Shown here piece by piece: positions 20,978-26,984 of a stretch of 26,984 nucleotides of DNA (position 1 is the first letter of the stretch; the number at the start of each line of letters is the position of its first letter). Below the pieces are notes generated by a model. It did not search any database and was not told where the DNA came from. It saw only the letters and a list, made by a program, of their open reading frames with translations. The position numbers and the translations under genes were made by a program. Source of the stretch: a virus (Duplodnaviria > Heunggongvirae > Uroviricota > Caudoviricetes); IMG/VR virus record IMGVR_UViG_2645727948_000013. One strand, given 5' to 3'.

Positions 20978-21979
20978 TTAAGGCTTCGGCTTTTTATCGA
21001 GGCTCTTTCTAAGGATATGCCCAATCATCCTGTCGAGTTCTTCCTGTAGCTCTTTTGAAAGTCGATTAAACTCATAAGAAAATGCACGGCCTTTCACGCG
21101 CTTCCTTGCAAAGCGATCCTTGTCCTCAAATTTCCATAATTCAGTAACTACGGACTTATCTTTAGAACCTTTATCCGTGAGTAGTGAGGCTTCCTTTGTT
21201 ATCAAGCGCAGGATTTTATTTTTAACTTCATCTTCGGCCATTTCTTCAATGGATAAGATGTCGTTTATTTCCGGGGATATGTTTTGAATAAGCTGATCAA
21301 ACTCTAAATTCTTGTTCCCCATTTCGTCGCCAACAGCACAAAGCGTTTTGTAGTCCGAAAAGGTTAATTCCGACTGCACAGGGAAAAGGGCGACTAATTC
21401 TTCCGGAGCACTCGCTGCCTGGAGAGCACGCGTGACCTTCGCCTGAGACAGCCCTTCTTTGGCTGCAATATCCTTCTGACTCATCCCATCATTTTTCATT
21501 CGCATCAAACGCAGACCTATTTCTCGAATGCTGTGCTGCAATGCTGTCTGAACGTCTTTCGCTAAATTTTGCGCTTCCTGAACGCTGATCTCCTGGTCCG
21601 TGACTAAAACCCGCAACCCTACGTTCTCTAAGATGGCAGAAGCTCGACGCCGGGAACCATCCAAAATTTCAATTTTCCCTGTAGCCCGTCTAACACCTAT
21701 TGCAGGGTAAAATTGCTGATGCTTAATAGTGCTTCGGATACTTTTTAATGATTTTGGCGTAAGAGATGCCTGGTCACGCCCGTTGTTATGCTGATCAACA
21801 AAGGTATCGCTTTCTACCTGGTTCGGAGGTATTACCTCTTCAATAAATGTGGCCTGGCGACCAGTTGATAACTTGAATACCTGCTCGACTCGATCGCCAG
21901 AGGCTGAAGAACTATCAAATCCGCTTAATATTGAAGGATTAAGGGTTCGCCCAATTGTTGGTCTGTTTTTCTTTGACAT
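20978..21979 (-). CDS. parB: Partition protein ParB, 333 aa
   Basis: Translation MSKKNRPTIGRTLNPSILSGF... ends ...DKKPKP. Size and sequence match P1 ParB as recalled. parS follows directly. Confidence 0.9.
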   Translation of the reverse strand: MSKKNRPTIGRTLNPSILSGFDSSSASGDRVEQVFKLSTGRQATFIEEVIPPNQVESDTFVDQHNNGRDQASLTPKSLKSIRSTIKHQQFYPAIGVRRATGKIEILDGSRRRASAILENVGLRVLVTDQEISVQEAQNLAKDVQTALQHSIREIGLRLMRMKNDGMSQKDIAAKEGLSQAKVTRALQAASAPEELVALFPVQSELTFSDYKTLCAVGDEMGNKNLEFDQLIQNISPEINDILSIEEMAEDEVKNKILRLITKEASLLTDKGSKDKSVVTELWKFEDKDRFARKRVKGRAFSYEFNRLSKELQEELDRMIGHILRKSLDKKPKP

Positions 21980-21995: not shown

Positions 21996-23192
21996 TCAGT
22001 TAGATCTGATAAATTCAATACGGTCAAAAACTGCTTTAGCAAAATCTTCCGCGGCAATTCGCGCGTTCTTCAATGCATCAGCACTACCAACATACGTTGC
22101 CGGGTTAGCTGAAATAACAGTGTCAAAAGACTCGCCGCAGCGTTCAAAACCGTCAAGGCGAGGGAGGACGACATCAAGCATATCCCCACCGAACACTTCT
22201 TTAGCCAGGCTATGGCAATACTTATGGTCTGCCTTGTTACTCAACTTGGACATAAAACCAATGTTAGTCGCAAGCTGGCACTCGCAGCCTTCATCCGAAA
22301 TGAGTTTCACCAACTCAGGAAGGCGGGCAACGTATTTAAGCGATGAGTGGAAATCAACCGTTGCAGGCGGCAGAGGTGTAAACAGTATATTGGCCGAGGC
22401 CAAAGCATTTTTCAGGAAGGCGTCAAGGTGAGGACCACTATCAACGAGGATAAAGTCATAATCGCTCTTCAGCTTATCAATCACATTTTCTTTCAGGACA
22501 GCATGGATGTTCTGACCCGGTAGATGCTCATTGCACAGCTCTCTCCAATCGGATGCAATAAAGGCATCGTCAATCGACGCAGGCATAACGTCAACCCCAG
22601 GTACAACAGAAGGAACAATAAACTCCTCTAACAGCTCTTCACGGCTTACATTCTGCAACATAGCCTGTGCAGATGTTGCGTTTACGATACCAATAGAGTG
22701 TTTATGGCTTAAAAACATCGTTGCTGAAGATTGCGGATCAAGGTCAATAACCAGAATCCTTAAATCTTCCATCAGAAGATGAGGGTGAGCACGCATTGCA
22801 TGCGCCAGAGAAACCGTCGATACAGTTTTTGACACACCGCCTTTAAGATTGGAGATGAAAATCACATACGCTTCGCTGTAGCGATCCCGGTATTTTGGCA
22901 CTCCGCGATGTTCATATATGTCAATGATGTTCTGAATTGACATCGCATATTTCATTGAAGAGCCAGCAGGGCGTTTATCGAAAACATAACCCTTTTCTTC
23001 CATTTCACTCACGGCATAGTCAACGTTCGCTCGAGTCAGTAGAGGCAATTTTGCCAGTGCCGCTTTCGCATAGACCTGGTAAAACTCGTTCGCGTGTAGC
23101 TCATCCTTTTGCAACTGTACTTGTTCAGTCAGAACATTGAGCATTCTGTTTGCTCTTTGAGCAACCTTGTGAAGCTGGCTGGAATCACTCAT
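21996..23192 (-). CDS. parA: Partition ATPase ParA (type Ia, with N-terminal DNA-binding extension), 398 aa
   Basis: Deviant Walker A (KGGVSKT), 398 aa, AAGGATGG RBS. Matches P1 ParA as recalled. Confidence 0.9.
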   Translation of the reverse strand: MSDSSQLHKVAQRANRMLNVLTEQVQLQKDELHANEFYQVYAKAALAKLPLLTRANVDYAVSEMEEKGYVFDKRPAGSSMKYAMSIQNIIDIYEHRGVPKYRDRYSEAYVIFISNLKGGVSKTVSTVSLAHAMRAHPHLLMEDLRILVIDLDPQSSATMFLSHKHSIGIVNATSAQAMLQNVSREELLEEFIVPSVVPGVDVMPASIDDAFIASDWRELCNEHLPGQNIHAVLKENVIDKLKSDYDFILVDSGPHLDAFLKNALASANILFTPLPPATVDFHSSLKYVARLPELVKLISDEGCECQLATNIGFMSKLSNKADHKYCHSLAKEVFGGDMLDVVLPRLDGFERCGESFDTVISANPATYVGSADALKNARIAAEDFAKAVFDRIEFIRSN

Positions 23193-23238
23193 CGAAAGCC
23201 ATCCTTTATGCTGTATTTTTGAATTTAATTAAAAATGC

Positions 23239-23261
23239 TGCATAAAATAATAATGTATGCA
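23239..23261. promoter_or_regulatory. par operon operator-like inverted repeat (TGCATA-N11-TATGCA)
   Basis: AT-rich inverted repeat directly upstream of parA, where ParA autoregulation is expected. Confidence 0.4.
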
Positions 23262-23332
23262 CAGATGCTTGTACATAGCATTCTCTGCATGTTTGGTTCA
23301 TTTTGCACGATTGAGAGTTACAAGGAGGGCAC

Positions 23333-23357
23333 AAAAAAGCCCCGTTCAGGGGCATCA
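23333..23357 (-). terminator. Intrinsic terminator after the T5orf172-domain gene
   Basis: Minus strand: gcccc-tgaac-ggggc followed by TTTTTTGTG, 4 nt after the stop at 23361. Confidence 0.65.
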
Positions 23358-23360
23358 GTG

Positions 23361-24170
23361 TTATTTGCTAAGAGCAGCGAATAATCGTTCGAAATCGATA
23401 GTATCTATAGCACGCGTAAGCGCCGGAAGTTCAGCCTCAAAGTACCCGTGTCGATCGTAAAAGAAGGGACCGAAGAGCGAGGCATGTTGGATTCTACTTC
23501 GCCCCAGCCCGGACACACAGTTAAGCCCATTACCGGCTAAAAGGCTAAAAAACTTCTCTGGATTATCGTGGTAAAGCTGGGAATCAATGGTGGCAGTTAA
23601 CTCTTCCATAGGGAAGCACACCCGCCTTGTCTCCCAGGAATATTTAGTCCGAAGCATAAACATTGCTTTCAGCAATTCACATTGAGCGCGGATCGCGTCC
23701 GGTTCATAGCCAGATATGGAGACATAAGCCACGTCCCTCATTCCTGCGTCATCTTTGAAAGTCACGATAGAAGTAACATCCAGCTCTTTTTCGAAAGAGC
23801 GGGCAGCATCTACTGGACGCTGAAGTAAATCATTCGACTTAATGCGCTCGAGAATCCCTCCCCACATATCATTTAGATATTCGATATGAGCCAAAACCTT
23901 ATCAAGACACTCTCGTGTAAACCATTCAGTATGCCCGCCACCAGCGCTTTTCTCCCACGGCGCATTCCAGGGGAAAAAGGTTGCGTGTAAAGCCCGCTCA
24001 AGATTAACTATTGCCAAACGCGTACCACGATAGACCCGTGAAAGCGCAAAATCGGGACTCACTTGTAGCCCTTTAAACCGTGCCAATGGACCACATGAAA
24101 TGCCGATTTTAAAAGTATCTCCATTCTCCGGCACCAGAACGTAGAGGTAGTGTTGTTTCTCTTCTTGCAT
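23361..24170 (-). CDS. T5orf172 (GIY-YIG-like) domain protein with an uncharacterised C-terminal domain, 269 aa
   Basis: N-terminus HYLYVLVPENGDTFKIGIS...R...LERALHATF...GGHTEWF fits the T5orf172/MUG113 pattern (YxYxL..KIG..R..E..LH..F..G..EWF). Weak SD. Has its own terminator. Confidence 0.7.
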   Translation of the reverse strand: MQEEKQHYLYVLVPENGDTFKIGISCGPLARFKGLQVSPDFALSRVYRGTRLAIVNLERALHATFFPWNAPWEKSAGGGHTEWFTRECLDKVLAHIEYLNDMWGGILERIKSNDLLQRPVDAARSFEKELDVTSIVTFKDDAGMRDVAYVSISGYEPDAIRAQCELLKAMFMLRTKYSWETRRVCFPMEELTATIDSQLYHDNPEKFFSLLAGNGLNCVSGLGRSRIQHASLFGPFFYDRHGYFEAELPALTRAIDTIDFERLFAALSK

Positions 24171-24204
24171 ATCAATACCACTGCTTGATGAGAACCGCGC
24201 AAAT

Positions 24205-24460
24205 GTTGACTATGCGCGAAAGTTAATGTGAATAGTTGACTATGCGCGATGTGACTACAGTCAAAAGTTGACTGTAGTCGATTTAACTCCACCAAAGATC
24301 GACTATGTAAGATATTGTCGGGAGAAACGTTGACTATACGCGATGAAATGACCCTAAAAGCCATCTCAATAGCGACTTGCAGAATATTGACGCCAGCAAA
24401 AATCCACCAGCGTCAACGAATGTCGCCTATAGTCAACTTCTCGCTATCGCATATAGTCAA
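24205..24460. repeat. incA-like iteron array (about 9 RepA-binding repeats, both orientations)
   Basis: Repeated GTTGACTAT(G/A)CGCGA and complement (C)GC(G/A)TATAGTCAAC units at about 24205, 24235, 24254/24267 (palindromic pair), 24300, 24329, 24409, 24424 and 24445. Confidence 0.8.
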
Positions 24461-24462
24461 TA

Positions 24463-25347
24463 TTATGGATTGCGCTTATGGATCTGGAAGCCGATTTTCC
24501 TGCCGTTTTTTATTTCTGAAAATTTAAGATATTCAATAGCTTCCAAATCTTTCATGGCTTTTCTGATAACGCTATTTTGCACGCTAACGGATGATTTGAG
24601 ATTAAGCCTTGCTCTAAGGCGCTCAATGCTGACAGGTGCCGGGTTGGCGGGTAGAGCCTCAAAGAATGTATACAGTACCTTGGCCGTCTCTTTGCGCCCG
24701 AGCTTATCCAGCATCTTCAGCTTCAGGATTCGCTTATAGTCAACATAGTAAAGTTCAGATAGCTGTTTCTGCGGCTGGATCTCGATAACATCAAGCTCGG
24801 TATTCAGGCTGCTATATGCCAACAAGTTGACGTTAATGTTATTGAGATGACCTTTTGCCGCCGGGAAGCGGAATTTGACAACTGTCTGCTGAATGCGTGT
24901 CAGAGAGTCATCAATACTTTTACGGAACGCCTTTGAAAGGCGCTTACGTGGATAGCCGCATCGATCGGCAAACTCGGAGAATGGCAGGGTGATTATGCCG
25001 TCATCATCAGGTGCGTAGTCAAACAACGCGGAGGTTATGCCCACCCACACCTTAAAATCAGTATCCATATCCAGGCGTGGGCCATGAATTTCAATTCCCT
25101 CATAGCCTTCCTGCTCAACAATTTTAAGGCTTGATAGTTCTTCGGTTGCGTTCGTTGTGTTTGTAGTAACTGACGATCCGCGACGTAGTGCCACATTGGT
25201 AGATTTTAAGGTTGGCACAAACACACCTAAGCGCAACAAAGCGATAGGTTGTATAGTGCTGTTGTTATTGGGCTTCAGGCTGTGGATTTCTCCTGTATTT
25301 CCTGCAACTTCTTCAACGCTAAGGAAGCCTTTACTTTCTTCCGGCAT
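24463..25347 (-). CDS. repA: Plasmid replication initiator RepA (iteron-binding, P1 RepA family), 294 aa
   Basis: Flanked by a 5-iteron origin upstream and a 9-iteron array downstream. GGAGAAA RBS. Segments (LRLGVFVP, GPRLDMDTDFK.W.G) resemble P1 RepA as recalled, but overall the protein looks divergent. Confidence 0.8.
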   Translation of the reverse strand: MPEESKGFLSVEEVAGNTGEIHSLKPNNNSTIQPIALLRLGVFVPTLKSTNVALRRGSSVTTNTTNATEELSSLKIVEQEGYEGIEIHGPRLDMDTDFKVWVGITSALFDYAPDDDGIITLPFSEFADRCGYPRKRLSKAFRKSIDDSLTRIQQTVVKFRFPAAKGHLNNINVNLLAYSSLNTELDVIEIQPQKQLSELYYVDYKRILKLKMLDKLGRKETAKVLYTFFEALPANPAPVSIERLRARLNLKSSVSVQNSVIRKAMKDLEAIEYLKFSEIKNGRKIGFQIHKRNP

Positions 25348-25424
25348 CGTGGTTTCTCCATGTGTGGCGCGGCCTGGCGTTAATTTAGATGACTGTTATC
25401 AACAGCTGTGAATATTCAGGCTCT

Positions 25425-25640
25425 AAAATCGCGTACAGTCAACGTTTCTGTCGCGTATAGTCAACAATAAATCGCGTGCAGTCAACATAAAATCGCACAC
25501 AGTCAACATAAAATCGCGTATAGTCAATGTTGATCCCGTTTCAGGCCATGAACGGCGCGGCTTACAGCGATCCGGGATCTTCTTTGGATCTTCCTAGGTT
25601 CTCTTTGGGATCTGTTTATTGGATCTATGCTGTGGATAAG
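25425..25640. other. Plasmid origin oriR: five phased iterons, GATC cluster and DnaA box
   Basis: Iterons gcg(t/c)a(c/t)agtcaa(c/t) at 25430, 25452, 25474, 25495 and 25516 (21 to 22 bp phasing). Six GATC sites between 25532 and 25625. DnaA box TGTGGATAA at 25631..25639. Confidence 0.8.
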
Positions 25641-25681
25641 TTGAATAAACCGGCCAACATAGCCGGTTGGAAGGAAGGGTA

Positions 25682-26074
25682 TTATTCTACGCTTTCGATA
25701 AGAAGACCATGTTCATAACATTTAAGCTCATCGCCTTCGTACAGGAATTGGTATCCAATACCACCATTTTCATGGACATTAGGGAATAACTCATAACTCA
25801 CTGAAGAGCAAATCACACCAATGCAGCGATCAACGCCTTCTCGTTCTTCAGTGCTGAAAAAATCCTCTTCGGTAAGAACATGAGTACATTGCTCATCAGC
25901 ATAGGTCGGAAATACATGCTCAATGCAATCCGGGTGTTTTAAACCAAGCTGAGCGGCAAGCTCGAAAGCATGACGGTATTGTTCAGATCCTGGCTTGCCA
26001 ACAGTGATGTGCTCAATTTTGTAGATTGAAGTCGCTTTGTTGATAGTTTGCTTTACTGTTACTTTATCAGACAT
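25682..26074 (-). CDS. Hypothetical protein (in the position of P1 UpfA), 130 aa
   Basis: ATG with AAAGGGA RBS, first gene of the cluster downstream of oriR. Cys/His-rich (CIEH, CTH, C..GVIC, CYEH). Confidence 0.6.
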   Translation of the reverse strand: MSDKVTVKQTINKATSIYKIEHITVGKPGSEQYRHAFELAAQLGLKHPDCIEHVFPTYADEQCTHVLTEEDFFSTEEREGVDRCIGVICSSVSYELFPNVHENGGIGYQFLYEGDELKCYEHGLLIESVE

Positions 26075-26674: not shown

Positions 26675-26763
26675 GTCTTCCTCCTGAAGAAAAATTATCA
26701 ATGAAGTCCTTTGTTACTGTGCCGCTTTGTTTAATTCATCAAGAACAGAATCAGGAACCAAAG

Positions 26764-26838
<75 letters not shown>

Positions 26839-26839
26839 T

Positions 26840-26896
<57 letters not shown>

Positions 26897-26925
26897 CAGA
26901 ACTCGCGCCAGCCTGATTGCAGATA

Positions 26926-26984
26926 TTACTCTTTTTTCTCCGTATCTGCATCGGGTTCATCAGCAAATAGCTTGCCCTGCATCC
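26926..26984 (-). CDS. 3' end of a minus-strand ORF entering from beyond the window (stop at 26926)
   Basis: The frame is open to the window edge, ending ...QGKLFADEPDADTEKKE*. Too short to assess. Confidence 0.2.
   Translation of the reverse strand, partial: MQGKLFADEPDADTEKKE

Follow-up and report, generated by a model that had tools for sequence, protein, structure and literature searches.

P1-like phage-plasmids are major vehicles of extended-spectrum beta-lactamase (ESBL) and mcr genes, and their replicons are of the IncY and p0111 types. The element described here is a P1-like stretch of 26,984 nucleotides, referred to as the window, which belongs to the Caudoviricetes record IMGVR_UViG_2645727948_000013, and the gene under study, called X, lies between the replication initiator gene repA and the partition genes. 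X occupies 23361..24170 on the minus strand, stop codon included, and codes for 269 amino acids (aa) from a start codon at 24168-24170; no rival open reading frame (ORF) longer than 67 aa overlaps it in the window. An intrinsic terminator, GCCCCTGAACGGGGC followed by T6, with five G-C pairs and a 5-nt loop, follows the gene at 23339..23353 on the minus strand. These are the 269-aa ORF and the terminator of its own that an earlier note on this DNA had reported, and the N-terminal residues are those it had quoted. An equivalent hairpin with a T-run is found 3’ of the diverged variant of X on contig L053. Sequence comparison supports X as a genuine coding gene, since its ratio of non-synonymous to synonymous substitution (dN/dS) is 0.30 and its full length is kept in three diverged relatives. 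The existence of X was already known, because its cassette is the p0111 replicon of phage-plasmids that have been described: databases annotate it as “GIY-YIG nuclease family protein”, and the literature records it as “gp57” of RCS47, SJ46 and JL22, with no function assigned. The allele in the window is identical to that of RCS47.

X is part of a replicon that stands in the place of the P1 replicon. In blastn, homology to P1 DNA runs at 99.2% identity up to position 23294 and resumes at 95.6% at position 25554. The segment in between, 23295..25553 on the minus strand, is a p0111-type replicon cassette that replaces the incA-repA-incC iterons of P1 (P1 record 61316-62815) and that is composed, in this order, of origin iterons, repA, control iterons, X and terminator, in 2,259 bp versus the 1,500 bp of incC-repA-incA in P1. 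Its par-side edge is located 19 nt upstream of the -35 element of Ppar. The core TGTGCTGGAGGG of the 19-bp P1 iterons does not occur between 23000 and 25800, where the replicon lies, and the window RepA is only 42% identical to P1 RepA, so the region is a replaced replicon; by its sequence it belongs to the Rep_3/RepFIB-like iteron replicons of the p0111 type, and from end to end it shares 98.7% identity with JL22, a p0111-type element (PMC9603915). X is the terminal gene of this cassette, and the cassette is exchanged as a unit. The gene had been described as an addition to the P1 layout, placed between the par operator and the incA iterons. P1, P7 and JK004 indeed have no gene in this interval, and X does lie between Ppar and an iteron array, whose nearest copy is at 24205-24219, but these iterons are not those of P1 incA. 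Insertion of an extra gene into the replicon of P1 itself is ruled out, as the entire incC-repA-incA segment has been exchanged, and the breakpoints coincide between two lineages of P1-like elements.

Three diverged relatives of X are found in the corresponding slot of other elements. P0004, which is full-length and 44% identical to X, is encoded in the P1-like contig L003 with the order Rep-X-ParA-ParB. Its database call of 311 aa begins 41 codons early and reads through the control iterons (L003 10001-10123), and alignment to the window protein indicates that its true start is M42. P0010, from a 93-kb contig of Salmonella enterica (L052), and P0011, from a faecal metagenome (L053), have identities to the window protein of ~28% and ~25%; both were first seen as N-terminal-only matches, though they are colinear with X over 263 columns (hhalign probability 99.6%). 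The variants of the window, L003, L052 and L053 all occupy the Rep-X-ParA slot, beside three types of Rep: the p0111 type in the window and L003, the P1 type in L052, as in P1, P7 and JK004, and a third type in L053. The backbones are also of three kinds, one found in the window, P1 and P7, another in L003 and L052, and another in L053 and JK004, and there are three par types too; in the identity matrix, backbone, Rep and par modules reassort, and among P1-like elements rep, X and par do so independently of one another. L053 joins the third Rep type to P7-type ParA and ParB (98% and 93% identity) in a JK004-like backbone, and JK004 joins a P1-type Rep to ParAB of the L003/L052 type.

The flanks of L003 and L052 are 96-98.6% identical and the difference between the two contigs is confined to the rep and X cassette, with one breakpoint ~190 bp upstream of rep and the other ~84 bp beyond the stop codon of X; the comparison of the window with P1 gives the same places. 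In both lineage pairs the par-side breakpoint is sharp, 66-84 bp past the X stop codon, and the ori side is a divergence gradient of ~250 bp; in the window, mismatches per 100 nt moving away from the cassette are 60, 21, 8 and then 2. X itself can be present or absent at this one locus: in L052, which has a P1-type rep, the X variant is a clean indel of ~900 bp, with 981 bp between aligned flanks versus 76 bp in JK004, P1 and P7. The rep-par slot of these last three elements lacks X, and no remnant of it is found in their empty spacers.

The protein is predicted to have two domains joined by a linker. The N-terminal catalytic domain (aa 1-105; 23856..24170, minus strand) matches the T5orf172 model PF10544 of Pfam over aa 8-85 with 26.8 bits (cut-off 20; E=7.6e-6), while MUG113 reaches 15.6 bits and remains under its cut-off of 22.3. 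The T5orf172/MUG113 signature claimed for this region thus stands for T5orf172, with the EWF and KIG residues conserved, and not for MUG113. Full-length X corresponds to phrog_2876 of PHROGs, a family of unassigned function, and its N-terminus matches the “endonuclease” family phrog_681 with E 1.1e-9; no NCBIfam model matches it. Residues Y10, K21, G23, R31, E58, H62, G79, E82, W83 and F84 are 94-100% conserved among 76 homologues, and the window protein keeps all ten, including the GIY-like tyrosine, the K-I-G residues, the catalytic arginine and the glutamate of E-W-F. X is therefore a predicted endonuclease with an apparently intact T5orf172/GIY-YIG core. The linker (aa 106-126; 23793..23855, minus strand) varies in size, has low values of the predicted local distance difference test (pLDDT) and is 7-36% identical among variants. 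The C-terminal alpha/beta domain (aa 127-269; 23364..23792, minus strand) is an orphan, and its predicted fold is weakly similar to the WH1 domains of Rep initiators. About 165 C-terminal residues match no known sequence family, which agrees with the earlier statement that this part has no recognisable motif.

The AlphaFold model of X, built from four diverse sequences, has a pLDDT of 73 and is of low confidence in the linker (aa 115-126); an earlier model from three sequences reached 55 and was not used for the fold search. In this predicted structure the N-domain has the GIY-YIG (URI) fold, and it matches GIY-YIG/SLX1 proteins and T5orf172 proteins of phages, among which are annotated homing endonucleases as well as ORF88/Odn of ICP1. 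A search of PDB sequences with the family profile gives nothing significant, the best match being a UPF0213 GIY-YIG protein with E 0.37. For the C-domain, Foldseek retrieves 6h24_A as the best match (E 0.044, probability 0.91), followed by RctB and many RepE54 entries, all with weak scores. The sequence signal is absent: no Pfam Rep family matches the C-domain at E <=10, its alignments to Rep, ParA and ParB have hhalign probabilities of at most 0.4%, and BLASTP against these proteins gives E >0.8. A C-domain that mimics Rep, ParA or ParB in sequence is ruled out by these three comparisons, and the WH1-like resemblance, which comes from the model, is a lead and not a finding. The layout of two domains plus linker is clear, the C-domain fold is only weakly WH1-like and its DNA binding is putative.

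The cassette, at 98-100% identity, is found in phages RCS47, SJ46, JL22 and phi456 and in 388 PLSDB records. RepA occurs at >=99% identity in 392 plasmids of PLSDB and X in 391. Among P1-like phage-plasmids, 63 of 119 are of the p0111 type and 52 of 119 of the IncY type (PMC10879196). When 1.84 billion representative proteins were scanned exhaustively with HMMER, 82 matches were obtained, in which the C-terminal ~150 aa matched only the X family and the N-terminal ~100 aa matched ~75 remote T5orf172 proteins; judged by sequence, the X family is very narrow among these representatives and occurs in P1-like elements only. Searches of a set of 5.8 billion proteins added only P0010 and P0011. Genome contigs contain one close copy of X, metagenome contigs 28 close copies and one remote match restricted to the N-terminus, and viral contigs 44 loci, mostly full-length and all near the window type. 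Variants of the L052 or L053 type are found neither in the viral contigs nor, as close copies, in PLSDB. No X was found outside the rep-par slot in the protein scan or in the metagenome and viral contigs.

X evolves much faster than the genes around it. Between the window and L003, identity is 44% for X versus 83% for RepA, 89% for ParA and 80% for the major head protein, and within X the N-domain is 65%, the linker 19% and the C-domain 32% identical. Among ~30 close alleles the dN/dS of X is 0.30, versus 0.02 for repA, 0.002 for parA and 0.05 for parB. About 10-11 of the 71 assessable copies of X (~15%) are disrupted, compared to ~1 of 73 for repA and ~2 of 70 for parA; the locus L028 of IMG/VR, where repA and parA are each frameshifted by single bases, may reflect sequencing errors or a decaying element and is a weak control. 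The lesions of X are S112* in five loci, Q228* in two, W68* in one, one frameshift and one or two truncations, and some alleles are substituted at deeply conserved residues (P71S, E73G, T81A). Broken alleles persist and spread, because S112* is common to five IMG/VR loci and Q228* is present in two, one of them the 103,445-bp L039 (IMGVR_UViG_2974549561_000001). From the dN/dS value and the broken copies, X is under weak purifying selection and dispensable for plasmid maintenance, and thus does not have the profile of a housekeeping gene kept in P1 and all its relatives.

The position of X relative to the iterons is relevant to its expression. The iteron 15-mer TCGCGYATAGTCAAC has 12 copies in the window versus 1.08 expected, and none of 100 shuffles reaches 12. 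The control, incA-like iterons near X (24201..24343, minus strand) comprise four clear copies, at 24205-24219, 24235-24249, 24267-24281 and 24329-24343, and one degenerate copy at ~24293-24307, with ~31-bp spacing; two inverted control iterons at 24423..24461 on the plus strand abut the repA stop codon. In each of the four variants 21-31 bp separate the last control iteron from the X start codon, the distance in the window being 31 bp, even though the three iteron sequences are unrelated. On the X strand of the iteron array only weak 8/12 matches to a sigma-70 promoter are found, at positions that are not conserved, and no terminator is found between repA and X. As read from the sequence, transcription of X must start in the RepA iteron array or run through it. 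The proposal that a promoter lies in or against the array is thereby kept in its general form, without a convincing sigma-70 promoter in that place. Having no good promoter on its strand and no terminator after repA, X could plausibly be expressed by read-through from PrepA, which is at least as likely as a promoter inside the iterons. We infer from this anatomy that expression of X may be coupled to RepA-bound iterons.

The interpretation that we tentatively prefer, with a probability slightly below even, is that X is a homing-endonuclease-like nuclease linked to its replicon cassette, which acts on rival P1-like DNA and has its expression tied to RepA-bound iterons. It is favoured by the GIY-YIG core, the I-TevI-like layout, the stand-alone gene, its position at a recombination boundary, the polymorphism at a single site, the fast divergence of linker and targeting domain and the decay where X is fixed. 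T5orf172 genes of ICP1 and other phages are putative homing endonuclease genes (HEGs) that have essential genes as neighbours and sit at genetic-exchange boundaries (PMC10448857). A breakpoint directly beside X, as expected of such a gene, fits homing and is no proof of it. X would be probably a site-specific enzyme, with an N-terminal T5orf172/GIY-YIG nuclease, a flexible linker of ~20 aa and a C-terminal targeting domain in the I-TevI-like order. Since its transcription would start in the control iterons bound by RepA or cross them, its expression would be low in an established lysogen and would peak when RepA is limiting, such as on entry into a new cell. The enzyme would then cut the rep-par region of a co-resident relative that lacks X or has another cassette, and X and the linked replicon would spread either by co-conversion, when the break is repaired from the copy that has X, or because the rival, once cut, is lost. 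X looks more like a selfish or competitive element permanently tied to its replicon cassette than like a known anti-phage defence.

Several observations weigh against this preference. The target of X is purely inferred. X is essentially fixed in p0111 elements, with 391 copies for 392 plasmids and no empty p0111 allele, and, unlike classic HEG families, it has no paralogues and none of its copies was found beyond the rep-par slot, so the sporadic distribution, multiple sites and paralogues typical of homing endonuclease genes are lacking. X has not swept through the population either, because IncY elements without it are still common (52 of 119 phage-plasmids; PMC10879196). The common breakpoints could just mark the start of flanking homology, the DNA binding of the C-domain is putative, the structural model is of moderate quality (pLDDT 73), and relaxed selection with decay also fits a gene of little current function.

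A stronger version, in which X drives replacement of the replicon cassette through a GIY-YIG nuclease whose diverged WH1-like module recognises the rep/inc region of rivals under RepA gating, is unlikely; if true, a rival cut by X would lose its replicon or be restored from the copy that has X, an entire incompatibility module would thus spread by “homing”, and the repeated IncY/p0111 swaps with their fixed breakpoints would be accounted for. A less improbable alternative, still on the doubtful side, is an interference nuclease similar to Odn, which would need no homing: a WH1-derived C-domain would target the iterons or RepA of a competing replicon and X would cut it, to prevail in incompatibility or exclusion contests. 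This alternative overlaps with the preferred interpretation but is specific as to the target and the descent of the domain. Odn cuts the iteron-containing replication origin of a rival element, and it is reported to keep the catalytic residues arginine and glutamate, with the substitution E180A abolishing its activity (PMC8263062). The iterons of the element itself are an unlikely target of X: its C-domain is only 32% identical between the window and L003, two elements whose iterons and RepA stay conserved. The earlier note had seen X as a candidate defence, anti-defence or exclusion cargo gene in a phage-plasmid hotspot, and a single-gene anti-phage or anti-plasmid defence that serves the host would agree with a nuclease domain on a fast-evolving gene of a mobile element and with a compact unit that has its own terminator, like accessory cargo. 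However, none of the 5027 models of PADLOC-DB v2 matches X at E <=1 and no NCBIfam model does, so the defence idea derives only from the domain class. The slot, in the elements examined, is empty or holds the X family and never other cargo, which rules out a generic hotspot among them. X is strictly linked to the replicon cassette and not to the known variable regions of P1, its nonsense alleles persist and are common to several loci, and its family is confined to P1-like elements, unlike the widespread defence genes; defence cargo is thus decidedly unlikely.

Two further explanations were weighed. X could be a domesticated, non-cutting DNA-binding accessory of the replicon, similar to CapR, that regulates copy number, iteron handcuffing or par expression. 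CapR is presented in PMC8096241, as cited in PMC10448857, as a T5orf172-related protein turned repressor, and X has the control iterons on one side and the par operator on the other, and may be co-transcribed with repA. A regulator of this kind is very unlikely for a gene that keeps all its catalytic residues, diverges far faster than its replicon and is dispensable, with ~15% of the copies broken, the Q228* allele included; moreover, P1-type replicons work with X (L052) or without it (P1, P7, JK004). A decaying relic that has no present function and is kept by linkage to repA would account for the dN/dS of 0.30 and for the recurring lesions at conserved residues (W68*, T81A, E73G, P71S), but this dN/dS is well below 1, ~85% of the copies are intact, and the architecture and catalytic residues survive down to ~25% identity in four lineages, which pure neutrality would not allow. 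The relic is accordingly highly improbable, and the homing-like nuclease linked to the cassette remains the preferred interpretation.

The other features of the region belong to the replicon and to its P1-derived surroundings. The repA gene (24463..25347, minus strand) codes for a Rep_3/RepFIB-like initiator of the p0111 type with 294 aa, in which Pfam detects Rep3_C with 27.3 bits (cut-off 21.1) and, marginally, Rep3_N with 22.0 bits (cut-off 22.4); it is ~45-48% identical to RepFIB RepA. An iteron-like site with one mismatch, TCGCTTATAGTCAAC, lies inside repA at 24730-24744, and such a site is also present in L003, around 9609-9630. Five origin iterons with 21-22-bp spacing are located at 25429..25528 on the plus strand. 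Outside the cassette, 25554..25660 is homologous to P1 oriR and forms its P1-derived half, with GATC sites at 25569, 25576, 25587, 25609 and 25622 and the DnaA box TGTGGATAA at 25631-25639. The replicon swap therefore splits oriR: the iterons specific to the initiator change with the cassette, and the GATC cluster of P1 type and the DnaA box stay with the backbone. On the other side, Ppar and the par operator (23275..23247, minus strand) are homologous to the annotated Ppar of P1 and belong to the par module, not to the cassette, and they are followed by parA (21996-23192) and parB (20978-21979), both of P1 type and on the minus strand. The search for known RNA families in 23000-25800 gave only a sub-threshold chance match, DUF2800 RNA, with 21.9 bits versus a gathering threshold of 60.2.

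At the end of the window (26763-26984), homology to P1 and RCS47 stops at 26763 inside upfB, so that only ~15 aa of UpfB remain. The final 221 bp are 99.5% identical to Escherichia coli chromosomal DNA, which comprises the 5’ end of ycaL and, from a Mu-like prophage, the 3’ end of a Mor-like gene. Among 5,426 complete E. coli genomes, not one has the junction at 26763, which results either from integration into the chromosome or rearrangement of the P1-like element or from a chimeric assembly.

Three aspects of X appear to be new: its terminal place among the genes of a mobile replicon cassette; its membership in a family of four branches, confined to the rep-par slot of P1-like elements and associated with three initiator types; and its orphan, possibly WH1-like, targeting domain. 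X is the sole non-replication gene of the exchanged cassette, which makes it a testable candidate for driving or policing replicon swapping and prophage-plasmid competition. If X targets rival replicons, it would extend the case of a “HEG turned inter-element weapon”, as ICP1 Odn against PLE, to the incompatibility of enterobacterial plasmids, and programmable nucleases could gain a new targeting domain from it. If X has no phenotype, the logic of its annotation would still be corrected, from defence cargo to a replicon-linked selfish gene.

The cassette and its terminal gene share features with several described systems. Like the replicons of P1 and of RepFIB/Rep_3 type, the cassette has origin iterons, an autoregulated initiator and downstream control iterons in both orientations, but P1 and the classical RepFIB replicons examined have no nuclease gene after the control iterons, and their iteron sequence differs from that of the window. 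I-TevI and the Seg proteins of phage T4 have, as X does, an N-terminal GIY-YIG domain, a flexible linker and a C-terminal targeting domain; X, a predicted nuclease, is of another GIY-YIG subfamily, T5orf172, and its C-domain is unrelated to theirs. The action of free-standing GIY-YIG genes of the T4 Seg type causes co-conversion or exclusion of flanking markers. The putative T5orf172 HEGs of the ICP1 type (PMC10448857) are also stand-alone intergenic genes with the conserved arginine and glutamate, adjoin essential genes and a boundary of exchange, combine nuclease and targeting modules and diversify rapidly. In most of them the nuclease is C-terminal to zinc-finger CapR/DUF723 domains, whereas in X it is N-terminal and the orphan C-domain has no zinc-finger motif; X is also single-copy and always found in one slot, in the replicon of a plasmid-prophage rather than in the genome of a lytic phage. 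Odn (ICP1 gp88; PMC8263062) is, like X, a T5orf172 nuclease tied to an iteron replicon, in a system where replicon modules swap; the modelled N-domain of X matches ICP1 ORF88 structurally, and the targeting domain of X may be initiator-like. The DNA-binding domain of Odn is 42% identical to RepA_N of PLE, in contrast to the C-domain of X, which has no detectable sequence similarity to Rep, and the gene for Odn is carried by the replicon's attacker, that for X by a replicon cassette itself.

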